Shown here: one piece after another, positions 6,511 through 25,071 of the stretch | How the letters are laid out: each line of letters opens with the position of its first letter | Numbering within the stretch: the stretch's first letter is position 1 | Assembly: GCF_010119205.1 (NCBI RefSeq) | Contig: NZ_WRXM01000002.1 | Location: forward strand, 22,982-54,981 | Length of the DNA: 32,000 nucleotides | Direction of reading: 5' to 3' | From: Haloarcula limicola | GTDB lineage: Archaea; Halobacteriota; Halobacteria; Halobacteriales; Haloarculaceae | The notes under the pieces: model-generated | What the model was told of the DNA's origin: nothing | The model's input: the letters and a program-made list of their open reading frames with translations, nothing else | Database searches by the model: none | Program-made: the position numbers and the translations under genes

Positions 6511-6598
6511 TGTGGTGGCGCTATAGGTTCCAATAACGAATCGTCGAAGCACGTTATCGTCTCTAACAAGAGGCGATTGTGATCAAACTCCACCCAAC

Positions 6599-8950: not shown

Positions 8951-9043
8951 CAGTATATGTATCAGAGTAATCGACTCGGAGAAACAGTTCCGCGATTAAT
9001 ATCCGCGATACATCCCCTGCAACCCACAGTATCTTCACCTCAG

Positions 9044-9790
9044 TTACTCAAAATCAGTCAGATCCGATTGGTCGGTCCAACCTCCTAAGTGAGCATATGC
9101 CTCTGGATTGTAGGGGACCCCCTCAGTGTTCAGTAGCAAATCAGGATACAGTTCCCATGCTAATGCAATAAGCTGTTGTTCGAGTTCTTCAAGGTATGGC
9201 GAGGCCCCCGTGTCTGGTGTATAGGGGCCTATATCGTCAACCTCCCAAGCTTTCATCCACAGATAGACATTCCGTTTGAGTCGACGAGACTTCGGCTCGA
9301 AAAGCGTCCGAATCCATCGCCCTTTTGAGGACCCTGGTGTCTCACCAGTGGATTCCCAAGCTGAATCGAAGTATGCCTGACTCAGACCGCCTAGATGAAA
9401 CGCAGTCCCATACCCCCATCTTGCGAACCGTGACTTCCGCTCCCGGATGTACTTTAAGTTTGGATTGAGTTTATACCCACTAGACGCGAACTTCCCCGAT
9501 TTTCCGATGTAGAGTGGGATTACATCTTTATTGGAGCCGAGCCAGTACATCACATAAATCACACCCTCGTACCGTTGCCCTCGTTCGTGGAAGTCGGTCT
9601 CAACATTTTCTGCCTGCTCAATGACCAGTCGCTCCATGGCCGCACTCCGCTTGAGAACATCGCGTTCGTGCGGTCCGTTTCCGAATTGCTCTGTCTGGAT
9701 CACACCATCGGCGTCAGTTTCGAACAGAGGGACGCTGTCGTCAAGATTGTGGATGTCCACCCATTGGGCCCAGACATCGGCCTTGCTCAT
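9044..9790 (-). CDS. GIY-YIG-like nuclease domain protein
   Basis: RYEGVIYVMYWLGSNKDVIPLYIGKSGKF...RFARWGYGTAFHLGGL: GVIYV...LYIGKS core followed by R/W positions. Confidence 0.75.
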   Translation of the reverse strand: MSKADVWAQWVDIHNLDDSVPLFETDADGVIQTEQFGNGPHERDVLKRSAAMERLVIEQAENVETDFHERGQRYEGVIYVMYWLGSNKDVIPLYIGKSGKFASSGYKLNPNLKYIRERKSRFARWGYGTAFHLGGLSQAYFDSAWESTGETPGSSKGRWIRTLFEPKSRRLKRNVYLWMKAWEVDDIGPYTPDTGASPYLEELEQQLIALAWELYPDLLLNTEGVPYNPEAYAHLGGWTDQSDLTDFE

Positions 9791-9968
9791 ACAGATCCCA
9801 TTTAAAAGCTGGAAATAAAATCCATCGGATTTAGTAAGAACACCGCCCGTATCGAGTCATAGATTACTACCCGCCGGAGAGAACCCGTGGAAAGCACGAT
9901 TTGATCTCCCAGCCCTCTTGCGATGTGTTCAACAGACGACTGTTATGGTATGCATCCGTCGGCTAGTC

Positions 9969-10541
9969 TTACCAAAGGTTAGGTCCACGGCTTCCACGAC
10001 GACCAATAACAAGTGAAAAGGTGAGTACCAGCACGATGCCAGCACCACCTAACAGCCACAATTGCTCTGGCGGTTGAACCTCTTGATAGGCTAAGTATCC
10101 CTGAATCAGTGCCGTCGCTGCCAGCAACCCAGTAGCCAGGGTTAGAACAACGTCTATTTTTCGACTCTCCGAACGCCACTTATCCTCTTTTTGGGTCCGG
10201 TACCAATCATGAGCTACCCGGTATCCCTCCTCAGTCAATCGATATACCACGAAATCTGTGTCTTCGAAGGGTCTGAGGTAGTGAACCAGTCCTTCATCCA
10301 GAAGGTGATTAAGTTCGATTATCGCCTGGTCTTCGGTAAGCTCTGTCTCTGTAAGTAGTTTGGAATCGGTCGAGAGGCTCTCTACCACGTCATATCTGTC
10401 TTCAGACATGTGTTCGGGTACCGTCATATGGCTCAAACTGACGACAACATCTGTCTCATACAGAACCTGAAGGACGTTAACCCAACCACGTGTTACCCAT
10501 TTCTCACCGTCAACGGTCCTTTCCATCAGTAAGTTCGTCAA
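9969..10541 (-). CDS. Winged-helix protein with two C-terminal transmembrane helices
   Basis: wHTH-like N-terminal half; hydrophobic segments VVLTLATGLLAATALIQGYLAY and LWLLGGAGIVLVLTFSLVIG. Confidence 0.7.
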   Translation of the reverse strand: MTNLLMERTVDGEKWVTRGWVNVLQVLYETDVVVSLSHMTVPEHMSEDRYDVVESLSTDSKLLTETELTEDQAIIELNHLLDEGLVHYLRPFEDTDFVVYRLTEEGYRVAHDWYRTQKEDKWRSESRKIDVVLTLATGLLAATALIQGYLAYQEVQPPEQLWLLGGAGIVLVLTFSLVIGRRGSRGPNLW

Positions 10542-10645
10542 CTAAAGAGTCAATAAACATTATCAAACTATTAGAGAATCCTTCCACTCTACTTGCCATA
10601 TACTGCCACGACATTCCCCTTTAGTGGACGATTCACGCTTTGCAT

Positions 10646-11806
10646 CTAATCAGATATCATCGTTTCCCCCAGTTCTCGTCCTACTCGAGTCTGTTGACGG
10701 TCCGCCGCTACGTCAAGCAGACGACTGCACAGCGATAGTACCTGCCGAACGTTACCCTGAGAACGCTGATGAACCCATTGTAAGCATTCCTCCTCGAACG
10801 GGGCGATTCCTCCAGTCCCATCTACTCGAGCGGTATCTAAATACGAGGCCACCAAGTCGGTGAGGTGTTCGTCTGTCAACGGACGCAACGCTACCTCCTG
10901 ACCGATCCGTTCAGAGAAGGCATGGTACTCACTCATCACGTCTTGCCACACCTCTGGTGCACAGGCAAACAGCAGACAGAGGCCGTGACTATTCTGGTCC
11001 ATCAGATGACGGATGCTATTTAGCGTCGCCTGTTCGTCCTTCGGCGACAGCCGGGCAATACTTTCGAACTCGTCAACAAAGACGAACACACCGGTATACC
11101 CCAGCTCAAGGAGGATATTCTTTAGAGCAGTGAACGCCCGAACGCTCGTCGTGTCGTCGTCGAGGGCGCTATGAATCTCCATTTCCTTCCGTTGCTCGTA
11201 GCGGATTCCTTCGGCGGTCAGCCACTGCCAAGCGTAGAGGTTAGTATCTTCGTACACCATGTGAACGATCGCTCGTGAGAAGTCCGCAAACTGGGTAACT
11301 GTATTAAGCCGTTGGATAGCTGTTGGAATAATCTCCGAGAGCAGCAGTTCGCCCTCGTCGATTAACTCACACATCTCATCGGGCCTGGATGGATGCCAGT
11401 CAGTAATATCTGAGGTAATATGAGCGAGATACTCGTACGCGAGTTGCTGCACTCGATCAAACCCTAGATCGTAGAGGAACTCGTGGTAGATATCACGGAA
11501 TCCCTCCCCGGGTTGGGCGACGTAACCGACGAGTACGTCGTCGCGATCACGGACCAGTGACCGTGTGTACTTGAGCGTATGTGACTTCCCGTTACCGTAT
11601 TTGGCTGTGACGACAAGGTGTTTCGACTTCCCGGTACTGAGCATCGTAGAGACTGTGTCGCTAATTCGCTTCGCTGCGTGTTCCTGTCCGCAGTATATCT
11701 CCGGGTCGTTTTTCGGAACAGGACTGTAGGGGAAAGGATTCTCCTCCAAGTTGAACTGGGAGTAATCGCGCTGTTCGTCGGTAATGGTGAAACCGTTGTC
11801 AGTCAT
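10646..11806 (-). CDS. AAA/P-loop ATPase
   Basis: VVTAKYGNGKSHTLKY Walker A; GVFVFVDEFESI Walker B; LLFACAPEVW sensor-like. Start at 11806 (MTDNGF) supported by the ATGACTGA overlap with the upstream gene. Confidence 0.85.
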   Translation of the reverse strand: MTDNGFTITDEQRDYSQFNLEENPFPYSPVPKNDPEIYCGQEHAAKRISDTVSTMLSTGKSKHLVVTAKYGNGKSHTLKYTRSLVRDRDDVLVGYVAQPGEGFRDIYHEFLYDLGFDRVQQLAYEYLAHITSDITDWHPSRPDEMCELIDEGELLLSEIIPTAIQRLNTVTQFADFSRAIVHMVYEDTNLYAWQWLTAEGIRYEQRKEMEIHSALDDDTTSVRAFTALKNILLELGYTGVFVFVDEFESIARLSPKDEQATLNSIRHLMDQNSHGLCLLFACAPEVWQDVMSEYHAFSERIGQEVALRPLTDEHLTDLVASYLDTARVDGTGGIAPFEEECLQWVHQRSQGNVRQVLSLCSRLLDVAADRQQTRVGRELGETMISD

Positions 11807-12698
11807 CGTTGTTTGGATCGTATTCGAGGTCACGGTCGTGGACCGCGAGATAGTAGTATCGCTTGCCGAACTGTTCGACACCGCGCATCACTTTGTCGGT
11901 CGACTGATTAGTAGAAACGAGACTACCGCTATCGGCGATCGTCATGGATTTGATGCCGAGTTTCGCATCTTTGGCTACCGTATCCACGGGGGCGCCCGAC
12001 AGCTCTACTCGTCCGACATTCTGCTCTGCAAGACGAACCAGAGCTTTGTCGAAGGGATCGCGTGGACACGTAAACTGCTCACAGTAGTGCTCGCGCAGCT
12101 TCGGGATTGAAAGATAGCGTTGTCTTAGTGACACTCCCCCAGTCTCCTCCAAATCGTCGAATACTGACAACAGATGGTCGGTGAAGCTGGACGTGACGCT
12201 GTCGCGTTCAACTGGATAGTAAGTACCGGTGAACGCGTTGCGCTGGATACGTCCGAGACGTTCGCCCCAGTCACCGAGAACCTCAACGCTCGTCTGATTA
12301 TATGTCCGTCCGGTGCTTTGCTCTCGTGTCTGTAGATCTCTAAGGATTGTTTCTAGATCGGTTGGTGCAGTCTCCTTGAGTGACTGAAGGAGTGCCCTGT
12401 AGTGGGGGCTCTGTGCCTCCAAGATATTGTTGACTCGGTCCCAGTTCTCATCCCGAACTGCCTTGACGAGATCGACGCCTATCTGGGTCGCCAGAAACCA
12501 CGTCTCGGAATCCTCAGGATTATGTTCGTCAATCAGGCCGACACGCAGCGCTTCAAGAATTGTCTCGCGTGCTCGTCGGTGGCTGACGTTCAATGCAGCC
12601 TCGATTTCAGCAGTCGTTTGGCTTTCGCCTTTACAGGCATGGGTCACCTCAATAAGGCGAGCAAGAGTAACCGGTCGCACCGTGGGACGCTCGCTCAT
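11799..12698 (-). CDS. Winged-helix-containing partner protein of the AAA ATPase
   Basis: SQTTAEIEAALNVSHRRARETILEALRVGLIDE wHTH; overlaps both neighbours by a few nt. Confidence 0.8.
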   Translation of the reverse strand: MSERPTVRPVTLARLIEVTHACKGESQTTAEIEAALNVSHRRARETILEALRVGLIDEHNPEDSETWFLATQIGVDLVKAVRDENWDRVNNILEAQSPHYRALLQSLKETAPTDLETILRDLQTREQSTGRTYNQTSVEVLGDWGERLGRIQRNAFTGTYYPVERDSVTSSFTDHLLSVFDDLEETGGVSLRQRYLSIPKLREHYCEQFTCPRDPFDKALVRLAEQNVGRVELSGAPVDTVAKDAKLGIKSMTIADSGSLVSTNQSTDKVMRGVEQFGKRYYYLAVHDRDLEYDPNNDD

Positions 12699-13762
12699 GT
12701 GAACCTCCGAACTTGCTGTTTCGCCATTTGATATGCTCGCTGAGTCACCTCATTGTGCTCGAACCGAAGGTCGAGATACGCCTCGATATCGTAATCGCCT
12801 GCGACCATGTACCGGAACCGACGAAGTTCAGTCACCAGCGACCAGAGGTTGTGTTGCGTCAGCAGATTCCGGTCCTTGCGTATGGTCGACAGCGGTCGTG
12901 AGCAGCAGACTGGGCACGAACATGGTAGATGCTCTAATTCCTCGATGCTATGGAGTTCCGTACCGCCGAATCCTGGAACAAGGTAGTTTCGATTGCCTGC
13001 GCTCCGGATGAATGCCGATGAGTCGAAACTATCGACGCCTAGATACAGCAACAGCGGCTGATAGACAATGCCACCTAACCCGTAAACGTGGAGATGCTTG
13101 TCCGTAACTCGTCGAGCAGACAGTATTAGTTTGGTTACTTTCTTGTAATCTGTCCTAATCGGCACTAAGCTACCGAGAGCATATCCGTCGAAGTCCCCTT
13201 TACGTTCGAGATATCGGAGTGTGTTCCGGATTGTTTTGGGATCGTGCCCATGAACACTGGCGAAAAGAAGTGCCTCTCCTTCGTGAGCATCGCTTGCTTG
13301 GAGTGCATATGTTGTACTCTCCTCAATTCGCTGTTGGTTCTCTACTGCCCGATTTTCGGGTGAGAGAGGTCGGTCAAGCGTCCCATAAATGTCTGCATCA
13401 AGTTGCCGTTGTGTTTCCAGTACTTGCTTTGGTGTAGTGTCGACTTCTTTGGAACGATAATCGAACCCACCGCTGTCGGCGTACAGAATAGTCTTACTAG
13501 GAACGCCCATCTCCTCACGTATCGTAGCCCCCTCGAGAAGACGATCCCACTGTGGACCACGCTGGCGGATTGCTCTGGTGTTTACCATTGCAGTCCGGAG
13601 GTCAGGTATACTGTCGGCGTACTCTGGGGTATTATCGCTCGACCGTTTTCCGATATTGCGGACTGGAAAGAGCACTGGTGTCTCCAGCGGCCCGTGCGGT
13701 GTCTTGAGCGTGCGGTGTCGGTACAGCATGGCGGCGCGCTTCGATAAGCTGGCGAGGCTCAT
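12695..13762 (-). CDS. tRNA-guanine transglycosylase-fold protein lacking PUA/C-terminal domains (candidate nucleic-acid guanine transglycosylase)
   Basis: ILYADSGGFDYRSKEV; YALGSLVPI; HVYGLGG; LGVDSFDSSAFIRSAGNRNYLVPG; zinc-site-like CSCPVCCS...QHNLWSLVTELRRFR. Internal start MSLASL at 13762. Confidence 0.85.
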   Translation of the reverse strand: MSLASLSKRAAMLYRHRTLKTPHGPLETPVLFPVRNIGKRSSDNTPEYADSIPDLRTAMVNTRAIRQRGPQWDRLLEGATIREEMGVPSKTILYADSGGFDYRSKEVDTTPKQVLETQRQLDADIYGTLDRPLSPENRAVENQQRIEESTTYALQASDAHEGEALLFASVHGHDPKTIRNTLRYLERKGDFDGYALGSLVPIRTDYKKVTKLILSARRVTDKHLHVYGLGGIVYQPLLLYLGVDSFDSSAFIRSAGNRNYLVPGFGGTELHSIEELEHLPCSCPVCCSRPLSTIRKDRNLLTQHNLWSLVTELRRFRYMVAGDYDIEAYLDLRFEHNEVTQRAYQMAKQQVRRFT

Positions 13763-13766
13763 AAAA

Positions 13767-13784
13767 GGTTGGTTCAGACCAACC
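13767..13784. promoter_or_regulatory. Perfect inverted repeat GGTTGGT-TCAG-ACCAACC, candidate operator or 5' hairpin
   Basis: 7-bp perfect arms with 4-nt spacer, 5 bp upstream of the TGT-like start codon, between two divergent genes. Confidence 0.55.
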
Positions 13785-13838
13785 CAAACTGCAGATAATC
13801 CGGAGTATGTATAATGACCCACCAATCAGTACGGGGTG

Positions 13839-14117
13839 ATGTATAACGAGGTTCGGTCAGTGGTTGAATCAAAATGGTCGATAAAGATCCTATCGTCGCT
13901 GTCAGAGGAGAGTCCACAGAATTTCTCGACGGTTCAGGAGCAGTTCGATACCTCGAACGATGTCATCACTGATAGACTGAGACTCCTTGCCGAGTACGAT
14001 CTCATTGATCGGAGAGAGCATACTCGTAGAGATGTTCGGTATAGCATCACTAAGCGTGGTGAACGATTCCTTGATGAACTGAGGGATCTCAATTCATTAC
14101 TCAGGAAGGGACTCTGA
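13839..14117 (+). CDS. HxlR/PadR-like winged-helix regulator
   Basis: SKWSIKILSSLSEESPQNFSTVQEQF...VITDRLRLLAEYDLIDRREHTRRDVRYSITKRGERFLDEL. Confidence 0.75.
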   Translation: MYNEVRSVVESKWSIKILSSLSEESPQNFSTVQEQFDTSNDVITDRLRLLAEYDLIDRREHTRRDVRYSITKRGERFLDELRDLNSLLRKGL

Positions 14118-14134
14118 ACAGATCCACTGGCCTA

Positions 14135-14842
14135 CTACTGGTAGTCGCCCAACCCACTCTGTGTTGTGGGTTCAGTCGTTAGATACTGAGCCAACTTCTC
14201 CAGGCACTCTACGCGTTTCCCCTCACTACGATGTGCAGCGAAGTTCTGAAGATAGCGGCCCTTGAGGGCGACGACGATTGTGCCATGTTCCTTCGCTTCT
14301 GCTAGCCGAGCAGAAATCGATATGACGTTATCGCGATCCACGGCGAGACTCTCTTGATTGAATACGACACCCGTCGTCTCGGTCGGAAGTGCATTGAGAA
14401 CTTCTTCAAGGTCACACGCGCGGTAGTAGTCGCTACCGAGGGCCAGAACGACGAGGTCGTATGGTGGGTCCGTCTGTACGGCGTCACGGACGTTCTGCGG
14501 AATTCCTAACTTGATCGCACGTTCGTCAATCTCGGTCGCAGTCATATCAGAGAACGTAATGTCGTACGGCGGTAACTCGGTGTCTTCGTCAACGAGGCCA
14601 AACCCTGCACTAATGTAGACTCGATTAACCGTATCTCCGCTCTCTCGGAGATGATCAACGGCGAAGTCAATGTACTGCTGCTGGCGTCCGGTGTATAATT
14701 GTCTTGCCGGAATACCCTGAACCTTATCTCTCTCAAGTAAGGCCTCGCGATCGTATTGGTCGATTTCAGCGGCATCGAACTCGGATACGTTCTCTGGGTT
14801 ATCTTTAGAGCCAGAACACTGGCCGACGATGAGTACACGCAT
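14135..14842 (-). CDS. DUF6884-like protein coupled to DpdA
   Basis: VLIVGQCSGSKDNP...IPARQLYTGRQQQYID...RVYISAGFGLVDEDTELPPYDITFSD; starts 2 nt after the stop of the upstream gene. Confidence 0.78.
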   Translation of the reverse strand: MRVLIVGQCSGSKDNPENVSEFDAAEIDQYDREALLERDKVQGIPARQLYTGRQQQYIDFAVDHLRESGDTVNRVYISAGFGLVDEDTELPPYDITFSDMTATEIDERAIKLGIPQNVRDAVQTDPPYDLVVLALGSDYYRACDLEEVLNALPTETTGVVFNQESLAVDRDNVISISARLAEAKEHGTIVVALKGRYLQNFAAHRSEGKRVECLEKLAQYLTTEPTTQSGLGDYQ

Positions 14843-14844
14843 GG

Positions 14845-17064
14845 TTAGTAGTCGGTCAGTCCGGATTGCATGAGATGCTGTGGGAGGAATTCGTCTTCGT
14901 ACCCGAGGCGTTCGAGAACGCCGTCTCGAATGCTTGCGGGGTTGGTGTGTTCATGTACCGTGCAGTTGACGTCCTCAAGCCGACTGCGAGTTGCTTCGTC
15001 CAGCTCTAAGTGCCGAGCGTCGACGAAAATATCCTGATACCGCTCACCTTCGGTGACAAGGACGTCGGCTAGGCCGTTGGAGTCGAACGATGCTGTCTCT
15101 GGACGGTTAGCCCACCACTCGTGCAATCCGGTTGCCGACACAGCCCCGATTTCGGCGACAGGGAGGTCGTGAACACTACCCCAGAACGTCGGTCGATCGT
15201 TACGGAGATATCTCTCCATAGTTCCCTGTCCCATCACAGACGCAGATGGACGCGTCACGACGAGAATTTTCGGGAGATCACCCTCGAATTGGTCATAGAA
15301 TCGCCGAGTATTGTGGAATCCACGGCGCCGATTACGGTTATTCCCTCGAAAGATTGCGACTTCGATTCCGTTCCGTGTACAGATTGGACAGTCACACCGT
15401 TTCCAAGGCTTGGCGTTGAGAAGGTCACGGTAATCGTCCAGAAGGTTTGCATCGCTGATCGGGTCCCAGGTCGCGTACGCCTCGACGAGGGGCCACAACG
15501 CGTTGATAGTGCCTGGCGTCTCTGACTCTCGTTCCACAACGACATCGAGCAACGTTGGTGTCCAATCGGTGAATACTTTCTCTGCAACTGCAACCAGGTC
15601 ATCGTACTCGGTGAACGGGATCGGGTTCTCGGGATCATCGTCACGGAGAAGTTTGATCAACTTCGAACTCAGCGGGTCACCGAAACTCGCCCGGAACGCA
15701 CGCCCGTGGTCGTAGCCCGAACGGAATGCCTCTTCAGTTTCTTTGATGTACGCCACGTCATACCGCTCGTCGTGCCGGTGCTCGAGAAGGTACTCCGTGA
15801 TCTCACTGAGAGCTTGTGTCGCTCGGTTGTGCCATGTCTGAAGTGCATCTGCAATCGGCTCGTTATTGTCGAACGCCCGGAGGGCATACAACATCTCCTG
15901 CCCTCGAAGAGCCTTCTCGATACTCGTTTGGAGGTCGTCTCGATAGCTCGGGTACCGGACGCGAATCGCGTCATAGCGCTCGTCGCTGTCGAGATGGTAA
16001 TTCTGTCCCCCTGTCCACGCTGCACGGAGCATGCTTGCGCTGTCGAAACTCGTCATACCACTACGACCGATGGTCTCGAAAGCACCGCTCTTGGCGAATC
16101 CAAAGACGTGGGTGTCGATGCGAGTCTCGTGCGTTCGTTCGAAGCTCTTGATTTCGTTCCCAACGGCACTCACGATATCTTTGACTGCACTCTCCGGACT
16201 TCCAGCGACACCACCGATACCAAGATACTGATACCCAAGATCGAGAACTTCCTTGGTCGCGTTTACGTACGATTCACAGTCCCAACCCTGCACAGCGGAC
16301 ATCAGTCGGAACGAGTAATCCCCTTCCTCGTACCGTTTGCGCATATCGCGAGCATTGCGGAGCGTGAGATCGTACCGATACTGCATATCGTCGGCCCGAT
16401 AGACTGCCCGAGGGTCGCTACGGAGATGTGCAATGATCTCCTCGACATCCCCCTCGAAATCAGTTCGTGTGAATGGCTCGATAGTCGAGACGTGATATAT
16501 GGAGGGTTCTTCTTCCGCGACATACGAAGGCCATCTGCGGCTAGAACTGCCATCGCCGTTGGGCCACGTATCGATCATGACGTCGAGTTCCTCGGTCACC
16601 TCCTCGGGGATGTCACCTTTGCTAAAGTCCCCGCTGAAAGCACGCTCATTGAGATAGAGGCGAGCAGTATGGCCCGCCCCAAGGACGAGGTGGTCAATCG
16701 TCACACCTGTAGTCACGCCGAGCTGCTCGTAGAACTCAAGCATCTCGCCGTTGTCGTACGGTGGGAAGGGGAGAGATTTGTAGCCCCACGCACCACAATC
16801 GCTGATCGTCGGGAGCCATCTAGGCAGGTCCAGTTTGGATGCGTCGTAAATTCCGTTCTCGGTCAATCGCTGTGCCTTAGTCGAACTCTCCTCTGCCTGT
16901 TCTCTCGAGATGAGGACGCCGTCGATCGGAGTGTTCTTCCTGTCGAATAAGTCCCAAATATACGCTAGATCACGCTCATCGGTCCCGAGCGTCGAGTGTT
17001 CGTCGTGGAGAAAATCGTAGTTCGCGTCAACCCGATCATCCCACTCGGGAACGTAGAACCGCAC
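14845..17064 (-). CDS. dpdA: DpdA-like DNA guanine transglycosylase
   Basis: TGT-fold signatures in a 739-aa DpdA-sized protein: PTISDCGAWGYKSLPFPPY, LGYQYLGIGGVAGS, THVFGFAKSG, GMTSFDSASMLRAAWTGGQNY, and CDCPICTRNGIEVAIFRGNNRNRRRGFHNTRRFYDQF. Confidence 0.82.
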   Translation of the reverse strand: MRFYVPEWDDRVDANYDFLHDEHSTLGTDERDLAYIWDLFDRKNTPIDGVLISREQAEESSTKAQRLTENGIYDASKLDLPRWLPTISDCGAWGYKSLPFPPYDNGEMLEFYEQLGVTTGVTIDHLVLGAGHTARLYLNERAFSGDFSKGDIPEEVTEELDVMIDTWPNGDGSSSRRWPSYVAEEEPSIYHVSTIEPFTRTDFEGDVEEIIAHLRSDPRAVYRADDMQYRYDLTLRNARDMRKRYEEGDYSFRLMSAVQGWDCESYVNATKEVLDLGYQYLGIGGVAGSPESAVKDIVSAVGNEIKSFERTHETRIDTHVFGFAKSGAFETIGRSGMTSFDSASMLRAAWTGGQNYHLDSDERYDAIRVRYPSYRDDLQTSIEKALRGQEMLYALRAFDNNEPIADALQTWHNRATQALSEITEYLLEHRHDERYDVAYIKETEEAFRSGYDHGRAFRASFGDPLSSKLIKLLRDDDPENPIPFTEYDDLVAVAEKVFTDWTPTLLDVVVERESETPGTINALWPLVEAYATWDPISDANLLDDYRDLLNAKPWKRCDCPICTRNGIEVAIFRGNNRNRRRGFHNTRRFYDQFEGDLPKILVVTRPSASVMGQGTMERYLRNDRPTFWGSVHDLPVAEIGAVSATGLHEWWANRPETASFDSNGLADVLVTEGERYQDIFVDARHLELDEATRSRLEDVNCTVHEHTNPASIRDGVLERLGYEDEFLPQHLMQSGLTDY

Positions 17065-17229
17065 TATTCAATCACCTACTCTGTGTTTCTCTTTTCGGCA
17101 TATTAGCGTACTGCTTCCGTGGTGGAACTGAAGAGGTCGGGTCCAGTGTTTTATACTCCGAACCGCTGAAGACTTCACTACATGCCCCACATTGTTCAGT
17201 CGACGACGCTTGGTGCAGTTAATTATATT

Positions 17230-17520
17230 CTAATTAGTGGAACCTGCGTGCTTGATTTTGCCGTTTCTGGTGAAGATGATTACTACACCTAGTCTAGCAC
17301 TGAGGACGCCGACTGGCCGGTAGAGGATGTTTCGCGGGTCGAAAACGTAGATGAAGCCCGTGTGATCCTCTATCCAGATGCCAAGACCTTCATCTGTGAA
17401 ATATCCGCGGATGGGGAGGAACACAATCAGGGTCCAGTTCGTTGCTACTGTGAGTGAGAGGAAGTCTATAGGTGGTCCATCTTCACTGAGTACCGTATGT
17501 TTATATGCTATCTGAACCAT
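17230..17520 (-). CDS. Hypothetical protein
   Basis: 96-aa ORF divergent from queD; no recognisable motif and may be spurious. Confidence 0.35.
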   Translation of the reverse strand: MVQIAYKHTVLSEDGPPIDFLSLTVATNWTLIVFLPIRGYFTDEGLGIWIEDHTGFIYVFDPRNILYRPVGVLSARLGVVIIFTRNGKIKHAGSTN

Positions 17521-17528
17521 CGGTGAGT

Positions 17529-18003
17529 ATGCCCGAGATAGCTTCAGGAGAATACTCCAGTAATATCTCCCTTGACGAGGCGGGCGAGCGGACCCTCCAC
17601 GTCGGTCGTGAGTGTCCTAACCGAATCAGTTCGGGGCACCGCATCCGCTACCATGACGGGAAGTGCTCCCGCCCACACGGGCACAATTACGAAATTTCAG
17701 TGACGGTCACCGGCGAAATCAGCGAGGAGGGGTGGATCGTCGACAAGGGCGACGTTACGGCCATCATCAGCGAGTGGGACCACCGTTTTTTACTCGGAAA
17801 AAGGTGACCTGCTCATTGAGGCATTTGAACGGTCGGGAGATGGTGACGCTGTTGTGGTCCTCAATCAGCCACCAACAGCAGAGGTGATGGCTGCGGTCCT
17901 CGAGCAACGTATGATAGAGGCGTTCCCCGAGAACGTCTCTGAGGTCTCTGTGGAAGTAGCCGAGACAAGAAGCGGGAACTCGGAGCCAACCGTTAATACG
18001 TAG
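17529..18003 (+). pseudogene. queD: QueD-like 6-carboxy-tetrahydropterin synthase with a single-base frameshift
   Basis: Frame 1: HVGRECPNRISSGHRIRYHDGKCSRPHGHNYEISVTVTGEISEEGWIVDKGDVTAIISEWDHRFLLGK, stop at 17807. The other frame from 17803 continues GDLLIEAFERSGDGDAVVVLNQPPTAEVMAAVLEQRMIEAFPENVSEVSVEVAETRSGNSEPTVNT to the TAG at 18001. Removing one A from 17798-17802 joins the halves. Confidence 0.85.
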
Positions 18004-18019
18004 CTCTCCAGCAGTAAAA

Positions 18020-18610
18020 GTGATGGAGAATAATCCTTCTCTGGGACCAGGACTCCAGCCCGAGACCCATGTGAGCGAGGAATACCGCGCTCTAGAGGAC
18101 GCTATCAATGCCTACTTTGAGGCGACGGACCTCCCGGATCAAGATGACCTCTACCGGGTGCTAGGCGACATCCTTGCCCCGGAGCTCCGGGAACGGTTTA
18201 AGACTGCCTATGATCTTGAACGACCTGCTGATACTCCCTGCATTCGGCGCCTGATTACAGGAGAAGAGGAGTGTACTTGTTCGGAAACTCGTTCGTGGGT
18301 GGACCAGGAACTAGAGCAGATTGGTGAACGCGGCGAGCCCCCACACGCCCCACCTCACGCCGATCACCCGACGCTCTGGCTTGACTCGAAGGGAACTGCC
18401 GCGGTCTACTCTATGCACGTCTACTCAGGCAACGTCGCTCCGTACTATCCCTCGAAAACTGCTGACTCAGCAGGCAATCCCCGGAATGGCTGGTTCGATA
18501 TGACTGACTGGGCGAGTCACTGGGGCCTCGACATCAGATTTTCCCCAATCTCGTGGTTCAATCCGTTTACCACGGTACAGGTGTTGTTATTCCCGCCTGG
18601 ACGCTACTGA
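18020..18610 (+). CDS. Hypothetical protein
   Basis: 196-aa acidic ORF, 16 nt after the queD stop, same strand. Confidence 0.65.
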   Translation: MMENNPSLGPGLQPETHVSEEYRALEDAINAYFEATDLPDQDDLYRVLGDILAPELRERFKTAYDLERPADTPCIRRLITGEEECTCSETRSWVDQELEQIGERGEPPHAPPHADHPTLWLDSKGTAAVYSMHVYSGNVAPYYPSKTADSAGNPRNGWFDMTDWASHWGLDIRFSPISWFNPFTTVQVLLFPPGRY

Positions 18611-18700
18611 GTTTCTTCGGCCCCTGAACACAAACACCCTCTTCGAGGCCATCAAATGTGGTCCCTCTGAATACTACTATTTGCCACAATTCTGAACACA

Positions 18701-19477
18701 CTATCCCATATTTCGATAGTGACCTGCTGCTCTGGCCACCTCGGCATAGGAAGCCTGACCCATCCCAAAAAACGGCGTATGGATAAGGTGGACTGAGTCG
18801 TCATCAACTGTGAGTTTGTAGAGTTCGTAAGAGGTCGAGCGCTCGGTCGAGACCAGCGTCTCAACCTTCTCACTGGGATAATGGTTCAAAAGGACCTCTG
18901 GTGTCGGGTTGGTGTTCGTGTTCCCGTAGGAAACGATGCACCTTACACCGTTGCTCTCTTCGATAGCATCCGTCAGGAGATGTTCTCGTCCTGGAATCAC
19001 CTCTCTGTGGTATGCGGCCTCAGACTTCCAGATGTGGTCGTAGGGTTCAATCGTATCCAGGCTCTTCGGGAGTGGAAAGAACTCTCCGGTGAGGCTATCC
19101 CCGCCTCGCCGACCAAGCCGTTTGTTCTCAAATACGTATTCCTTAGCTCTTCTCCCGAGCGTCGCTGACGACTCCTCTAATAGTGATGGATCTTCTAGTG
19201 TCATCATGAACACCGCTTGGAATCTCCACGTTGACGGTCCAGAGAACTTCTCCAAGGCAAATCCATGCTTTTCCTCCCATACCTGTTTAAAGTCCTCTGT
19301 CAGTCCGAACTCCCGCCTTAACCTCAAGAAGTCCTCTACGTCGTCTACGTTGTTGAACCCCTCCCATCGATAGAGGCTTTCTTCGATTCCAATGAACCAA
19401 TACGGGCTGTCGAGACTACCATATCCGAGCCAGTTGTAGAGACAATCCCGAACTAAGGGTTCTGGGAGTTCAGACAT
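18701..19477 (-). CDS. Hypothetical protein with weak resemblance to uracil-DNA-glycosylase-fold proteins
   Basis: SPYWFIGIEES near the N-terminus and VHLIHTPFFGMGQ near the C-terminus. Start at 19477 (MSELPEP) supported by the ATGTCTGA overlap. Confidence 0.7.
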   Translation of the reverse strand: MSELPEPLVRDCLYNWLGYGSLDSPYWFIGIEESLYRWEGFNNVDDVEDFLRLRREFGLTEDFKQVWEEKHGFALEKFSGPSTWRFQAVFMMTLEDPSLLEESSATLGRRAKEYVFENKRLGRRGGDSLTGEFFPLPKSLDTIEPYDHIWKSEAAYHREVIPGREHLLTDAIEESNGVRCIVSYGNTNTNPTPEVLLNHYPSEKVETLVSTERSTSYELYKLTVDDDSVHLIHTPFFGMGQASYAEVARAAGHYRNMG

Positions 19478-20225
19478 GGGCATCTGGACAAACGTCGTTG
19501 TATTCGCACGCTCGGCACTTCGCCGCTTTCTCCGTTGGAATCGGCTCCCGCTCATTTCGCCAATATCCGAGAGCCCAGTTGAGGTCCTCCAGATACTCTA
19601 CCTTTGAGAACTCAGAAAGATGCAGGATGGCCGTCGGAGACTCAGTCAGTTCGTGGTCACCGGTCTCCCACCCCTCGTAACTTGCCATCACTAACTGCTG
19701 GAGTTCCTTTCCTGTCCCCGGTTCTAGTGATTGCTCGTGGCTAAGGACGGCAATCCTCAGATTGTCGGTGTGGAAGCCGAGACTGTCAAGAATGAAACCG
19801 TACAGCCATGCCTGGATTCGCTGGTTCTTGTAGAGGTAGTCAGGCCTCGACGTCGTCTTTCGTTCAAAGATAAGCTGCGGGCTCTGATTCTCAAAGAGAA
19901 CGGCGTCCGGAATACCACCGATGAGGAATTCCGCTGCCTCGCCAATGAAGGGACTCTCGACGATAACCTGGCGCTCACCTCTCTCTAAAGCCCGCCAAAA
20001 TTCCTCGTCAGAGACTTCTTCAGAGTCCTCGGCTGCTTTCTCGTGGGTTTCGCTCCCACGGGTCTTTGCAGGTGTTTCAATGTCCCCGTGCTCCCGAGTG
20101 AGCGCGACCTGCTTCTCGCAATAGAATTGCCCCGCAATTTTGCTCGGCGCCAGCGACGACTCCTCTGACTCAGATAGCTGCTTGACGAGCGAAGTATGCT
20201 TCTCTCGGACCCTCTCAATGCTCAT
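19470..20225 (-). CDS. Cas4/RecB-like PD-(D/E)XK nuclease with Fe-S cysteines
   Basis: SKIAGQFYCEKQVAL; GGIPDAV...LIFERKTTS; RIQAWLYGFIL; KAAKCRACEYNDVCPDAHV. Confidence 0.85.
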   Translation of the reverse strand: MSIERVREKHTSLVKQLSESEESSLAPSKIAGQFYCEKQVALTREHGDIETPAKTRGSETHEKAAEDSEEVSDEEFWRALERGERQVIVESPFIGEAAEFLIGGIPDAVLFENQSPQLIFERKTTSRPDYLYKNQRIQAWLYGFILDSLGFHTDNLRIAVLSHEQSLEPGTGKELQQLVMASYEGWETGDHELTESPTAILHLSEFSKVEYLEDLNWALGYWRNEREPIPTEKAAKCRACEYNDVCPDAHV

Positions 20226-20442
20226 GCTCTCAGTATACTCTTCAGCTGTTTAATATGTAGTGTCAGGTGACCACTTTTTAGATGCTCATCAAACTAATCT
20301 GATCGGCCCTATTGAAGCCCTCACCCACAGAAGCGAATCGAGACGAGAATGTCTAAAAATGGGAGCAGTGTCGTATACCCCTGCACCATAGTTCTCTGCC
20401 CCGTCCCCATGTTTAAGGTCGGACTCTGAGTACCACGTGTTA

Positions 20443-20652
20443 ATGACCGACACAATACCTGTGTTGTGCCGGGAGTGCGAAGAACCATGGAAAACGGTGG
20501 AAATGGAACCTCATGAATACGATGAAGACCGACTTGATGACGAAGGGAACATTACGATCGGGTATTGCAGCGACTGCATGGCTGTTCTAGCCGGTAGTCC
20601 CGTCCGCCAGTTAGAGCTCGCGGTGGAAGCGGAACAAAGCGACGAGCACTGA
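20443..20652 (+). CDS. Small zinc-finger-like protein
   Basis: CREC...CSDC four-cysteine motif; MTDTIPVLCRECEEPW start. Confidence 0.6.
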   Translation: MTDTIPVLCRECEEPWKTVEMEPHEYDEDRLDDEGNITIGYCSDCMAVLAGSPVRQLELAVEAEQSDEH

Positions 20653-20828
20653 TGTCTGCTGTTGGTAAGAGACAGGTCTCCCTTCTGCTGCTGTCGGTGG
20701 CAATGGTAGTCGTCGGGGTGCTAGGACTGATCAACGCCATTGCTCCGACACAGATCCTAGCCGGTCTTCTGCTCGTCACCGCACTCTTTCTCGCAGCCAG
20801 TCTGGGCCGTCGGTCGGTCAATCAATAA
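20652..20828 (+). CDS. 58-aa membrane protein, translationally coupled
   Basis: Manual translation MSAVGKRQVSLLLLSVAMVVVVGVLGLINAIAPTQILAGLLLVTALFLAASLGRRSVNQ gives two hydrophobic helices. TGATG overlap with the preceding gene; below the ORF-track cutoff. Confidence 0.6.
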   Translation: MSAVGKRQVSLLLLSVAMVVVGVLGLINAIAPTQILAGLLLVTALFLAASLGRRSVNQ

Positions 20829-21081
20829 TAGTAGACTCGACCCTGCGGAGCGTCAGAACGTCGGGTGGGACAAAAGCGACCGGTGGGGAGTTCTCATACT
20901 GCATGTTAATCTCGTTATTTGTCCAGGTCAAGAACTGTCACCAGATATAAATTTTGGCTTAGTCAGTCGAATTCGACCGTCTCAGAAGATCACCACCTAG
21001 CTCGCTGCATGTTTGTACACAAATACGAAACTATAGAAATAAGTAATAACCTGAACAACAACACGTTGGAAACTATAACCG

Positions 21082-21483
21082 GTGACCACGTTCAACTTCA
21101 ACCCAGGCTCTGACATCCACGTTGATACGGCCAGTGACAATGTCACCATCCGCTTCGGTACCGACATGTTCGGAATCAACCCGACTACAAGCGGGTTCTC
21201 AGTCACAAATGACTGGAACAGCCGTCACTTTACCCTCGCATTCGACGAAAAATCTATCCTCTACCACGTTACACGCGAAGATGACGATGACCGAACTAGT
21301 GGGAAGAAAGCCCTTCCACCTGAAGAATTCATAGCTGAAATCTATGGGTACATTCGATCCATTGCAACACCTGTACCAAAAGACCATCTGAACTTCGAGA
21401 TCGTCGGGCGAGCAGATATGACTGAAATGGAGAACTACCTAAAAGACAAAAACGTGGCCCGTGAGACTAATGTTGGTCTGTAA
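21082..21483 (+). CDS. Hypothetical protein
   Basis: 133-aa acidic ORF; upstream AT-rich agatataaattt element near 20943. Confidence 0.6.
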   Translation: MTTFNFNPGSDIHVDTASDNVTIRFGTDMFGINPTTSGFSVTNDWNSRHFTLAFDEKSILYHVTREDDDDRTSGKKALPPEEFIAEIYGYIRSIATPVPKDHLNFEIVGRADMTEMENYLKDKNVARETNVGL

Positions 21484-21774
21484 GTGGACGAGGAAGAACG
21501 GGCAGGCCTTGTAGGTGAACTAAATGAGAACCCAGCAGGCCTCGGGAAGGTCTATCAGAGGGTTCTCGATGCAGTACCATTTGATGAAGCGGCAGACCCT
21601 GAGGGTGGAGAGAATATCTTCTTTTATCCGACCGCAAATGCAATTATTATGCTGTTCATCTTCCCCGATGAGTATATTGGAGTCACCACCGCTAGTGAAG
21701 TAGTCACATTTATCGAACACGCCGGAGGTTCACAGATCATGGATCACATTATCCGTTCGATGAGTGGCGAATAA
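21484..21774 (+). CDS. Hypothetical protein
   Basis: 96-aa acidic ORF with GTG start directly abutting the preceding TAA. Confidence 0.6.
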   Translation: MDEEERAGLVGELNENPAGLGKVYQRVLDAVPFDEAADPEGGENIFFYPTANAIIMLFIFPDEYIGVTTASEVVTFIEHAGGSQIMDHIIRSMSGE

Positions 21775-21983
21775 GCCTCTATTCTCGGTAGAAGTGACAC
21801 TCAAAGACGTTTCTTCGCTCCTGTGACTACTATCACCCCTGTTTGAGTGGTGCAAATCGGGTTCTGTAACGGGTTTTCCTCCTTATGCGACACCACGCTC
21901 AGAACTCAAACGTGCAGTCGGACCGCACGAACCGATCGTTCTTCGCATCCTGAATCCCCTGCCAGAGATCTGTTTCTCCCCAG

Positions 21984-22127
21984 TTAATCATCGTCATCGT
22001 TCTCGCCGGGGTGCGGGCCGAGGGAGCCGTTGGCTTCCAGGGTGACTTGCGACCACTTTTTGTTTGTTTCCGCAGCATCGTCTGCATGCGCGCGATACGC
22101 CTGTGCGATTTCCTCGGGGTCAGTCAT
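21984..22127 (-). CDS. 47-aa acidic small protein
   Basis: MTDPEEIAQAYRAHADDAAETNKKWSQVTLEANGSLGPHPGENDDDD; ATGACTGA overlap with the upstream small ORF. Confidence 0.5.
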   Translation of the reverse strand: MTDPEEIAQAYRAHADDAAETNKKWSQVTLEANGSLGPHPGENDDDD

Positions 22128-22233
22128 TGGTATCTAGGTCGGTGTACTGCTCGGCGGCGGAATCCTCTGCTATCGCGGCCCATTGTTTGACATCAAATTC
22201 ACCATCATACTCCGGACCAGTATCGTCACTCAT
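22120..22233 (-). CDS. 37-aa acidic small protein
   Basis: MSDDTGPEYDGEFDVKQWAAIAEDSAAEQYTDLDTND; overlapping start/stop at both ends. Confidence 0.5.
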   Translation of the reverse strand: MSDDTGPEYDGEFDVKQWAAIAEDSAAEQYTDLDTND

Positions 22234-22348
22234 CCTCTTCCTTGCGCGGTTCCCGATCCGGTGGTAATTCCGCGTTCTCCAATGCATCTTCCTTCTCCTT
22301 CTTTGACCAGCCGCCGTAGCGCTCAGTCGAGACCCCGAAGTAAGCCAT
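22226..22348 (-). CDS. 40-aa small charged protein
   Basis: MAYFGVSTERYGGWSKKEKEDALENAELPPDREPRKEEDE; ATGAGTGA overlap with the next ORF. Confidence 0.5.
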   Translation of the reverse strand: MAYFGVSTERYGGWSKKEKEDALENAELPPDREPRKEEDE

Positions 22349-22414
22349 TAGCGGCTAGTACGGAGCTCTAAGGTAAAGAAACAGGGGGAAGTGCCGAATC
22401 AGAATCCTAGCCGG

Positions 22415-22657
22415 TCACTCCTCTAACTCTTCATCAATACCACCATCATAGTTGATATCTGAATGCGCCTCCATCAGTTCCGCCCACTCATCACGGGTAA
22501 TACTGTTACTAACATCCTCCTCCGGAATGATTAGTAACTGATCGGCGCGGATACCCTCCCGGTGATCTATACGCAGCCAGTCGGGGTCGCTTTCCTCAAT
22601 TTCGTCAGTATCAGCGAACACTTCGGTGTGGTTCGATTTTATTGCTACTACGAGCAC
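22415..22657 (-). CDS. Hypothetical acidic protein
   Basis: 80-aa ORF with haloarchaeal acidic composition, same direction as the small-ORF chain. Confidence 0.55.
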   Translation of the reverse strand: MLVVAIKSNHTEVFADTDEIEESDPDWLRIDHREGIRADQLLIIPEEDVSNSITRDEWAELMEAHSDINYDGGIDEELEE

Positions 22658-22730
22658 GATAACTCCGTCTCAGGGCTATTATACGAGTATTTCTCTATTT
22701 TATGGATTAGTATTATAGCATATTTTCACA

Positions 22731-22813
22731 GCACAAGCACCTCGCACATGCACATGTGCTCGGCACACAACACAATCACACCGCACATCTGCACGGCACA
22801 CTCTATCGGCACA
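22731..22813. repeat. Cluster of GCACA motifs next to an AT-rich tract
   Basis: GCACA at 22731, 22744, 22750, 22763, 22783, 22796 and 22809; perfect palindrome GCACATGTGC at 22750-22759. Confidence 0.6.
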
Positions 22814-22864
22814 TCCACTCCCGACTCCGGCACCTAACCCCCGCCAACGCCTTACATCGACACA

Positions 22865-22975
22865 ATGACCAGCAACGACACCACCTATACCGTAACCATC
22901 TACACCGGCCCAAAATGGATCGCCGACGCCAAGGTAAAAATTGGAGAATGGATCGAGGAACGACGAAAACAATAG
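22865..22975 (+). CDS. 36-aa small protein
   Basis: MTSNDTTYTVTIYTGPKWIADAKVKIGEWIEERRKQ; flanked by GCACA-rich stretches. Confidence 0.35.
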   Translation: MTSNDTTYTVTIYTGPKWIADAKVKIGEWIEERRKQ

Positions 22976-23137
22976 GTAGAGCCGGCTAGACCTGGTTCTC
23001 TCAACACGAAACCCGGGGGTTCGGCTTGAGGTGAGCCAATCTAAATCGATGTACTACCGACAGCACATGTACATTACACACTCACACGGCACATGCGCTC
23101 AGCACAAACATAGAACACATCTCACCTCGGATGTGGA

Positions 23138-23401
23138 TCAGAGGTAATTGGTCAGTGACTGGCGCTCGCCGTCAGGAGCTTCAATATCTACACTGTCCTC
23201 GTCTCGGTGAAACTGGTACCCTCGTTTTCGAAGCATCAACGTCACCATAGCCTCCGTACTGAGAGACTCCATATCTTCGATATCACCGCGCTTATAGGAT
23301 GCTGCAAGCCGCAACAATTGCTCGTCACTAGCATCATTGAGTGTCTCGTGGTCGAGCTCAGCCAATCTTAACAGATCGTTTGCTGGGTCGGTATCATCCA
23401 T
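23138..23401 (-). CDS. Hypothetical acidic protein
   Basis: Probable start MDDTDPANDLLRLAELDHETL inside ORF 23138..23479. Confidence 0.6.
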   Translation of the reverse strand: MDDTDPANDLLRLAELDHETLNDASDEQLLRLAASYKRGDIEDMESLSTEAMVTLMLRKRGYQFHRDEDSVDIEAPDGERQSLTNYL

Positions 23402-23504
23402 CGTGGGTGTGATTATTATTAGAAGTATCCAAAAGCTTGCTGATTGGTCATATCTCCTACTACAAAGAGGAGATCGCAATCTTTCAATATAGCAATTTCA
23501 AGTG

Positions 23505-24701: not shown

Positions 24702-25071
24702 TGTCCTCACCCGATGAATCGTTGGATCGGTCGAACTTCTCCAACTCACCCTCGATCAGTTCACGGTGGAACCCGACTACCTCGTCAACGGTCTCCTCGT
24801 CGAGCTGCTGGTTTTCCAGCGTGTCGAGCGCTTCGTTCGCCATCGCCATCTTCGCTTGTAGACTACTGAATTCGTCGAGAATGTCGTAGAGCATACTCTC
24901 GACCTCGTCCGGAACACCACTTTGTCCTTTGTCGCGTGATATTTGCTCGGAAACAGACTTCCGCACGAGATCTGAGACGTTCTTGTATTTACGCCCCGCT
25001 TCCTCATGTTCGATGAAGTTCTCCCAGTCGGTTTTTTGCCCGTCGTCAACGTGGATATGCATACGAGCCAT
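24694..25071 (-). CDS. Small protein co-translated with the integrase, possible DNA-binding or recombination accessory factor
   Basis: MARMHIHVDDGQKTDWENFIEHEEAGRKYKNVSDLVRKSVSEQI..., C-terminal part of ORF 24694..25458; 8-nt overlap with the integrase. Confidence 0.65.
   Translation of the reverse strand: MARMHIHVDDGQKTDWENFIEHEEAGRKYKNVSDLVRKSVSEQISRDKGQSGVPDEVESMLYDILDEFSSLQAKMAMANEALDTLENQQLDEETVDEVVGFHRELIEGELEKFDRSNDSSGEDSA

Follow-up and report, generated by a model that had tools for sequence, protein, structure and literature searches.

A DpdA-centred gene module with a second transglycosylase in Haloarcula limicola, a candidate haloarchaeal 7-deazaguanine DNA modification system

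Bacteria and viruses are known to modify DNA with 7-deazaguanines. In the bacterial Dpd system, the transglycosylase DpdA and the ATPase DpdB insert preQ0 into DNA, and DpdC makes dADG (PMC10164549; PMC5699537). The bacterial DpdA requires the ATPase DpdB (PMC10164549). The enzymes DpdA1-4 have been described for phages and viruses, and DpdA4/DUF6610 is found in haloviruses (PMC10516641). For cellular archaea, the searchable literature offers a one-line remark on the host of the halovirus HVTV-1: Hutinet et al. (2019, PMC6884629) brought up the DpdA of H. vallismortis (EMA11768, AOLQ01000002) and named it solely as an enzyme that might modify HVTV-1. The present analysis deals with a stretch of 32,000 nucleotides (nt) of Haloarcula limicola (assembly GCF_010119205.1, contig NZ_WRXM01000002.1, positions 22,982 to 54,981), which is referred to as the window. 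It contains a dpdA-like gene, a gene for a DUF6884/DpdC-like protein and a group of three genes, the trio, which encode a second, short enzyme with the fold of tRNA-guanine transglycosylases (TGT2), a tandem winged-helix protein and a BrxD-like AAA ATPase. The favoured reading, to which a probability of roughly 55% is assigned, is that these five genes form a haloarchaeal version of Dpd, a two-unit modification system on mobile islands and plasmids in which the trio has a DpdB-like role. No description of the haloarchaeal cluster, the second transglycosylase (TGT) or the winged-helix/ATPase pair was found in the searchable literature, and the two-TGT layout is apparently previously undescribed.

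The locus was compared with 128 related loci. A scan of one genome per species yielded 46 haloarchaeal loci from many genera, which were found via DpdA, together with 11 actinobacterial dpd loci, and a metagenome scan seeded with TGT2 yielded 80 loci; the 128 loci consist of the 46 haloarchaeal genome loci and 82 TGT2-seeded loci. The presence of each gene in the 46 genome loci was determined by tblastn with each window protein, and que and folE genes were counted by clustering all open reading frames (ORFs) in the loci. The EMA11768/AOLQ01000002 record of H. vallismortis is locus L046.

The dpdA-like gene encodes a protein of 739 amino acids (aa), which scores 278 bits against the DpdA equivalog model of NCBIfam (NF041059, cut-off 200) and matches the DpdA model of PADLOC at 2.8e-73; a Pfam search returned no match. 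It is 100% identical to a protein recorded for Halomicroarcula limicola, and the window maps to ~295.7-318 kb of contig JAHQXF010000002.1 (GCA_019061235.1). A phmmer search of the PDB retrieved Salmonella DpdA (7UI4) at 1.7e-38 in three collinear blocks, and the same structure is the top PDB match in Foldseek (E 8e-11) for the AlphaFold2 model, which has a mean predicted local distance difference test score (pLDDT) of 74. D89, D124 and D341 align to D95, D130 and D256 of the Salmonella enzyme, in which Asp95 serves as acid/base, Asp130 in base binding and Asp256 as the nucleophile (PMC10164549). Q259 occupies the position of H181, and C557, C559, C562 and H584 match the zinc site of 7UI4. D89, D124, Q259, D341 and all four zinc ligands are invariant in 25 homologues, and the protein is therefore a DpdA paralogue with the catalytic Asp pair, the base-binding Asp and the zinc site in place. 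Compared to Salmonella DpdA, it is expanded at residues ~132-227 and ~392-540 and has an extra C-terminal alpha/beta domain of ~140 aa (~600-730).

The product of the next gene matches the DpdC model of PADLOC at 8.6e-10, and this match covers only the N-terminal 108 residues (residues 2-109) of the protein, the model having 312 positions. DUF6884 has been described as a distant relative of YaaA (PMC11701544). The motifs C9-x3-K13 (CxxxK) and S78-A-G-F-G82, the SAxxG motif of the family, are kept in 46 DUF6884 homologues, and a PDB sequence search with the protein returned nothing. In 32 of the 46 genome loci, DpdA and DUF6884 are encoded by a single fused ORF.

TGT2 obtains its best family score with the archaeal TGT (ArcTGT) model TIGR00432 TgtA, namely 137 bits at a cut-off of 350. 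With this score below the cut-off and the C-terminal C1, C2 and PUA tRNA-binding domains missing, it falls outside the ArcTGT family. Its alignment with the ArcTGT of P. horikoshii (1IQ8, 582 aa) is confined to residues 90-324 of the latter and shows that D95, D130 and D249, which comprise both catalytic Asp residues and the base-binding one, are kept, as is the CxCxxC...H zinc site; a His replaces Gln169, the position at which Salmonella DpdA has His181. An exhaustive HMMER search placed TGT2 in a family of short TGTs of ~340-360 aa, in which the catalytic Asp pair and the zinc ligands are invariant. Full-length ArcTGTs, with identities of no more than 31%, stand apart from this family, whose edge is marked by the nearest outgroup, a 352-aa PUA-less TGT (P0378, in loci L151 and L152) with 34% identity, which is possibly a short tRNA ArcTGT. 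An assignment of TGT2 as an ArcS-like amidinotransferase was set aside, as the ArcS model gave 44 bits compared to 137 bits for TgtA.

The remaining two genes of the trio encode a putative DNA-binding protein and an ATPase. For the 299-aa protein, no match was found in Pfam, NCBIfam or PADLOC; however, its AlphaFold2 model (pLDDT 82) shows a string of winged-helix domains, for which Foldseek lists RPC62, the C-terminus of SelB, the recognition domain of FokI, SspB and MarR-type regulators. The ATPase matches BrxC_BrxD of Pfam at 1.3e-14 (54 bits at a cut-off of 22) as well as AAA_22, and PADLOC reports BrxD (2e-12) and SngB matches, whereas the BrxD model of NCBIfam (NF033438) gives only 46 bits at a cut-off of 350. 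None of the proteins that define the context of a bacteriophage exclusion (BREX) system, i.e., PglZ, PglX and BrxA/B/C, was found among the window proteins, and the ATPase thus falls outside the BrxD proteins of BREX and belongs only to the broader Pfam BrxC_BrxD/DUF2791 domain family. Walker A (GNGKS) and Walker B (VFVDEFE) motifs are readable in its translation. PDB sequence searches with the ATPase and with a profile of the 299-aa protein returned nothing.

The five genes are conserved as a module. DpdA and DUF6884 are present in all 46 genome loci, TGT2 and the ATPase in 40 and the winged-helix protein in 39 of them, and the fixed order DpdA, DUF6884, TGT2, winged-helix protein, ATPase is found in 39-40 of these 46 species-level genomes and also in metagenome loci. 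Conversely, DpdA is present in all 18 TGT2-seeded loci that are fully flanked (16 metagenome loci and the genome loci L059 and L060). The trio is inverted as one unit in L020, L039 and L060 and hence moves as a block. Relative to the window proteins, the median identity amounts to 55% for DpdA, 46% for DUF6884, 70% for TGT2, 55% for the winged-helix protein and 74% for the ATPase. The order TGT2, winged-helix protein, ATPase is kept at a TGT2 identity of 36-40% in L147 (39% guanine-cytosine (GC) content); the 1.7-kb contig L146 (38% GC) is long enough only for TGT2 and the first part of the winged-helix gene. At the same level of TGT2 identity, the 16.5-kb metagenome contig L148 (58% GC) contains the complete trio together with a 578-aa DpdA-DUF6884 fusion, which does not have the haloarchaeal insertions and scores 360 bits with the DpdA model. 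This contig further encodes a MazE-like protein, a UvrD helicase and a PD-(D/E)XK nuclease as separate genes next to the ATPase, a DndB-family protein and an integrase; it could be a minimal version of the system or one close to its ancestral state. Copies of the module are also located on plasmids (L002, L028, L032/L042 and L033), and some genomes carry two copies. Salinibaculum rarum has two chromosomal copies (L029 and L037), and one plasmid of Halospeciosus flavus bears two (L032 and L042), with a frameshifted TGT2 gene in L032 and split DpdA and winged-helix genes in L042. In L040, TGT2 and the ATPase are present as fragments only, and in L043, DpdA is broken by an insertion of ~560 bp.

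A first-pass annotation, made by a model from the letters of the window, had proposed a 7-deazaguanine DNA modification and defence island centred on DpdA at 12695-20225. The DpdA-like transglycosylase, its DUF6884-like partner and the second short TGT-fold protein are real genes, the model and structure searches it called for found a DpdA with an intact active site and the fold of 7UI4, and the kind of cluster it named, a DpdA-centred one on a mobile low-GC island, is supported. Its guess that the two-TGT composition may be a distinct haloarchaeal version is borne out by the conservation of this layout across loci, which makes an accident of this genome an inadequate explanation. The boundaries, however, had to be moved: the conserved module spans 10646-17064, and the AAA ATPase and its winged-helix partner, both of which exist, lie outside the proposed interval. 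Likewise, the grouping holds for the five module genes, which co-occur far beyond chance, but not for the Cas4-like nuclease, its partner gene and the integrase, which never recur. All features of the window are listed in the table.

Table. Features of the window; positions are those of the window, and module genes (the first five rows) follow the NCBI gene starts.
Feature	Length	Position	Strand	Evidence and remarks
dpdA-like DNA-guanine transglycosylase gene	739 aa	14845-17064	-	NCBIfam DpdA, PADLOC and 7UI4 matches
DUF6884/DpdC-like protein	235 aa	14135-14842	-	Pfam DUF6884, PADLOC DpdC; start 2 nt past dpdA stop
TGT2, short stand-alone TGT-fold enzyme	344 aa	12695-13729	-	Pfam TGT 1.2e-29; without C1, C2 and PUA
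Tandem winged-helix protein	299 aa	11799-12698	-	AlphaFold2/Foldseek; start overlaps TGT2 stop by 4 nt
BrxD-like AAA ATPase	386 aa	10646-11806	-	Start overlaps stop of the 299-aa gene by 8 nt
HxlR-type winged-helix regulator		13836-14117	+	Pfam HxlR 9e-8; opposite strand, between the two sub-operons
queD, frameshifted		17505-18003	+	PTPS/QueD matches over first 100 aa only
UvrD helicase-PD-(D/E)XK nuclease fusion	1076 aa	2315-5545	-	Pfam UvrD-helicase 2.7e-37, UvrD_C, PDDEXK_1 6.5e-14
Cas4-like PD-(D/E)XK Fe-S nuclease	251 aa	19470-20225	-	PDDEXK_1, Exo5 and Cas4 matches; four-Cys pattern
258-aa gene	258 aa	18701-19477	-	Overlaps Cas4-like gene by 8 nt, translationally coupled to it; no Pfam, PHROGs or PADLOC match
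196-aa ORF	196 aa	18020-18610	+	No Pfam, PHROGs or PADLOC match
783-aa protein	783 aa	6599-8950	+	Weak N-terminal GHKL/HATPase_c_3 match; long acidic low-complexity C-terminus
Tyrosine integrase		23505-24749	-	Pfam Phage_integrase 2.4e-21; right edge of low-GC island, adjoins RFC large-subunit gene
242-aa ORF and DUF7344 winged-helix protein	242 aa (ORF)	within 418-2029		ORF with weak Uma2-type endonuclease match

The module would be organised in two transcription units, dpdA-DUF6884 as unit 1 and TGT2-winged-helix-ATPase as unit 2. The first of these quite probably writes a 7-deazaguanine mark into DNA, for which the homology of the proteins, their fusion and the pathway context argue. DpdA is predicted to replace guanine in double-stranded DNA by preQ0 using the double-displacement mechanism of TGTs, with D341 as the nucleophile and D89 as general acid/base, and the DpdC/YaaA-like DUF6884 protein would subsequently act on the base so placed, with its 7-amido form (dADG) as the most likely product. 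Unit 2 may be a translationally coupled complex, most likely an ATP-driven DNA-access or targeting machine, which would place a second, catalytically competent transglycosylase on the DNA. It could thereby take the part that the ParB-like ATPase DpdB plays for the bacterial DpdA, and/or write a second mark or modify a second sequence context. The combination of ATP-dependent DNA access and a second-writer role as a replacement for DpdB is put forward as a tentative proposal, somewhat short of an even chance. Among the ~20 window proteins, PADLOC gave no match to the ParB/DndB-like ATPase DpdB; a gene of the DndB family was seen solely in the distant variant L148.

The genes for preQ0 synthesis are frequently found upstream of the module: clustering revealed QueD in 31, QueE in 26, QueC in 24 and FolE in 21 of the 46 genome loci, and tblastn detected queD in 30. 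In the window copy, folE, queC and queE are absent beside the module, and queD is frameshifted. The frame of the N-terminal part stops at 17807, whereas the last 68 aa lie in another frame (17797-18003), the two frames switching in a T/A homopolymer stretch at ~17787-17803; the protein has 153 aa in relatives, and the gene is missing from the NCBI annotation of this copy. It is either a pseudogene or the result of an assembly or homopolymer sequencing error. With its own preQ0 genes lost and queD frameshifted, this copy must receive preQ0 from the archaeosine pathway of the host if it is active at all. In the Halalkaliarchaeum locus L060 (9087-9746, 14415-15122), a queuosine-precursor transporter of the Vut_1/YhhQ type is located directly upstream of TGT2, and the gene for a NucS endonuclease separates the trio from the inverted DpdA-DUF6884 pair. 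An HxlR regulator is found at the equivalent position in seven of the 46 loci.

None of the restriction genes dpdD-K was found in the window. The most plausible restriction component in this copy would be the UvrD-PD-(D/E)XK fusion, which is the best candidate for a restriction partner because it recurs beside the module in ~9 other loci: homologues are present in L024, L029, L034, L037 (partial) and four metagenome loci, and in L148 in the form of separate genes. The fusion has a C-terminal Cys cluster and sits in a stretch of 63% GC inside the island. Elsewhere, a helicase of ~1300-1850 aa (DEAD/Helicase_C) with weak DruE, DrmA and DpdJ matches is paired with a DrmC-like PLD nuclease; this pair is found in 11-12 of the 46 genome loci and near 17 of the 82 TGT2-seeded loci. 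One family of neighbouring genes gives a 24-bit match to DpdH.

Several observations weigh against a two-unit Dpd system with the trio as DpdB substitute. The Pfam DUF6884 match is below threshold (2.3e-6; 28.3 bits compared to a gathering score of 30), and this copy may be decaying. In ~2/3 of the loci, no recognisable nuclease is located within 10 kb, so that a defence role is no more than plausible. The nearest outgroup of TGT2 (L151/L152) stands among housekeeping genes (Trm56, POR and an F420-dependent oxidoreductase) of a methanogen-like archaeon, so that a tRNA substrate is possible on sequence grounds. Finally, three fully flanked loci contain DpdA-DUF6884 without the trio: L015, where an SMC/SbcC-like ATPase (6648-9644) is encoded upstream; L026, where two HNH_2 nucleases (12946-13932 and 15355-16350) occupy the position of the trio; and L027, where a helicase-PLD pair lies beside it. 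DpdA is thus not strictly dependent on the trio, which weakens the idea that the trio substitutes for DpdB. In an alternative, the trio would be a discrimination or restriction arm: the ATPase and winged-helix protein would scan DNA, marking by DpdA-DUF6884 would protect host DNA, and TGT2 would excise or covalently trap unmodified guanines in incoming DNA, which would be left with abasic sites or crosslinked to protein. All fully flanked loci with TGT2 also contain DpdA, whereas DpdA-DUF6884 does occur without the trio; an asymmetry of this kind would be expected if the trio were toxic in the absence of its modification partner. The exchange of the trio for HNH_2 nucleases in L026, the roles of BrxD- and SngB-type ATPases as parts of defence systems, the arrangement of the trio as a separate, invertible transcription unit and the absence of any other nuclease near most loci point in the same direction, as do the evolutionary rates, since TGT2 and the ATPase evolve most slowly and DpdA and the winged-helix protein faster, as specificity components would. 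However, the trio does not contain a nuclease domain, and the HNH replacement is known from one locus only. Moreover, helicase-PLD or UvrD-nuclease modules, which are already restriction-like, accompany the trio in ~1/3 of the loci, and in L060 preQ0 genes and the YhhQ transporter are located directly upstream of TGT2, which suggests that TGT2 uses preQ0. We know of no TGT-fold enzyme that acts as a restriction effector, and this alternative is regarded as unlikely, if the most serious of the competing explanations.

It was also considered that the module serves DNA modification only and thereby conceals plasmids and integrative elements from the restriction enzymes of the host, with no restriction arm of its own. 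Its location on plasmids and on an integrase-bearing island fits this idea, as does the known protection from restriction by phage 7-deazaguanine systems (PMC6884629). Most loci have no adjacent nuclease, and the disrupted copies in L032, L040, L042 and L043 suggest that loss is tolerated, which would be unexpected with an active restriction arm. On the other hand, the module recurs beside helicase-PLD genes (12 of 46 genome loci, 17 of 82 TGT2-seeded loci) and UvrD-nuclease genes, many defence-type genes, such as those for GmrSD, HNH nucleases, SMC-like ATPases and large helicases, surround it, and the family is absent from the IMG/VR viral contigs, so that a pure stealth function is given a rather low probability, below that of the restriction arm. 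Far less probable is that the two enzymes are mobile paralogues of the archaeosine pathway, which modify tRNA instead of DNA. The best score of TGT2 is indeed with the ArcTGT model, its closest outgroup is the short TGT in a housekeeping context, and NCBI calls both proteins tRNA-guanine transglycosylases; however, the score of the 739-aa protein exceeds the cut-off of the DpdA equivalog model, its structural match to DpdA is better than to any TGT, and DpdA occurs fused to the DUF6884 domain, a relative of the DNA-binding protein YaaA. TGT2 itself has no PUA domain, scores far under the TgtA cut-off and forms a coupled unit with the tandem winged-helix protein and the AAA ATPase, and the distribution of the module is patchy and mobile. 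A comparably small chance remains for the version of the first-pass annotation, in which the Cas4-like Fe-S nuclease and its partner (18701-20225) were the restriction component. The pair does exist as described, only 2.4 kb from dpdA, with PD-(D/E)XK motifs, a four-Cys pattern and an 8-nt overlap between the genes. The nuclease, however, scores 38.5 bits with the Cas4 model TIGR00372 (cut-off 65) and thus falls outside the Cas4 family, no cas genes or repeat array were found in the window, and neither protein has a PHROG match. As no homologue of the nuclease, the 258-aa partner or the 196-aa ORF was found in the 128 loci, the pair was rejected as a member of the system and is considered unrelated island cargo; it may instead be a small gene pair of its own that serves defence or a mobile element.

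The setting of the module is a low-GC island, in agreement with what had been noticed at first sight, i.e., lower-GC DNA near an integrase. In the GC profile of the window, values of ~48-56% over ~6000-25000 are followed by 62-71% in the right-hand flank, and the step at ~24500-25000 coincides with the integrase gene, for which Pfam confirms the assignment. No homologue of this integrase was found in the 46 genome loci or among all 128 related loci. The ends of the island were sought by means of tRNA genes, none of which was found in the window, and of att-type direct repeats, for which the window contains no convincing pair. At the left end (418-2029), the GC content is low again (52-54%), and the island, or a second one, probably continues past the end of the window. 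Homologues of the 783-aa protein are encoded downstream of the module in L003, L139 and L140. The ORFs of 258, 196, 248, 190, 133, 96, 113 and 126 aa gave no matches in PHROGs and PADLOC. As for the metabolic part of the earlier proposal, the queD homologue exists from 17505 onwards, albeit split by the frameshift, and a supply of preQ0 by the host is plausible given that only this frameshifted gene is present here and relatives carry folE, queC, queE and queD.

Relatives of the module were also sought among viruses. A scan of the IMG/VR viral contigs with the DpdA alignment revealed no haloarchaeal-type DpdA, and a viral origin of the family was rejected on this basis. The corresponding scan with the alignment of the TGT2 family found only TGT-like genes with 24-29% identity. 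Two IMG/VR contigs of 25-29% GC (L141 and L142) carry a TGT-like gene that is 26-28% identical to TGT2, and upstream of it tblastn homologues of queD, queE, folE and queC as well as an RFC-like ATPase gene; this arrangement looks like a viral deazaguanine gene cluster.

A two-unit Dpd system with a second transglycosylase would be of interest for several reasons. The replacement of DpdB by TGT2, a DNA-binding protein and an ATPase bears on the question of why the bacterial DpdA needs an ATPase. A bolder idea, to which only a low probability is attached, is that the trio is a novel type of immune effector, an ATP-driven complex in which a transglycosylase instead of a nuclease damages or covalently traps unmodified guanines of invading DNA while DpdA-DUF6884 labels self DNA, or that haloarchaeal chromosomes carry two different deazaguanine marks, each written by an enzyme. 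If one of these were true, the module would be the first system for 7-deazaguanine DNA modification in cellular archaea, and it may expose a new enzymatic logic for the distinction between self and foreign DNA. The cluster further bears on the interplay between viruses and hosts, because haloviruses use preQ1-modified DNA. Since it is found in at least 46 haloarchaeal species and is often plasmid-borne, it can be tested in the culturable and partly tractable genera Haloferax, Halobacterium and Haloarcula.

The closest described relative is the bacterial Dpd system (dpdA-K of Salmonella Montevideo; Thiaville 2016; Yuan 2018; Gedara 2023, PMC10164549), which shares with the haloarchaeal module the catalytic Asp pair, the base-binding Asp and the zinc site of DpdA, a putative partner of the YaaA superfamily (DpdC in bacteria, the DpdC-like DUF6884 protein here), preQ0 genes within the cluster in most relatives, the location on a mobile genomic island and variable helicase and PLD-type genes near a subset of loci. 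In contrast to the bacterial system, the archaeal one has no DpdB and instead contains a second TGT-fold enzyme, a tandem winged-helix protein and a BrxD-like ATPase. Its DpdA of 739 aa has an internal expansion, an extra C-terminal domain and a Gln at the position of His181, and is usually fused to DUF6884; homologues of DpdD-I were not detected in the loci except for the one match to DpdH. With the DpdA proteins of phages and archaeal viruses (PMC6884629, PMC10516641), the module has in common a DNA transglycosylase beside folE, queD, queE and queC; some viral members likewise use preQ0 of the host, and haloviruses such as HVTV-1 carry 7-deazaguanine DNA. However, members of the haloarchaeal family come from cells or plasmids, belong to the bacterial type of DpdA rather than to DpdA4/DUF6610 and are accompanied by the TGT2 trio. 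TGT2 shares the catalytic TIM barrel, both Asp residues and the zinc motif with ArcTGT/TgtA and its PUA-less short forms, but differs in the missing C1, C2 and PUA domains, in the score of 137 compared to 350 bits, in the His that replaces Gln169 and in its setting, since it shares an operon on mobile DNA with the winged-helix and ATPase genes instead of standing in a housekeeping context. Another point of comparison is provided by the BrxD/DUF2791 proteins of BREX and by the BREX-related TGT systems termed 'BRC' (PMC12839542), in which a BrxC_BrxD ATPase, a multi-winged-helix protein and a TGT-fold protein likewise occur in a defence-like neighbourhood. Genes for PglZ, HerA/FtsK, GNAT, BrxB and BrxC-like proteins are absent here, and the ATPase scores 46 bits with a BrxD model that requires 350. 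Furthermore, the BRC systems have been described without DpdC-like genes (PMC12839542), whereas the haloarchaeal module combines its TGT2 trio with DpdA and DUF6884.

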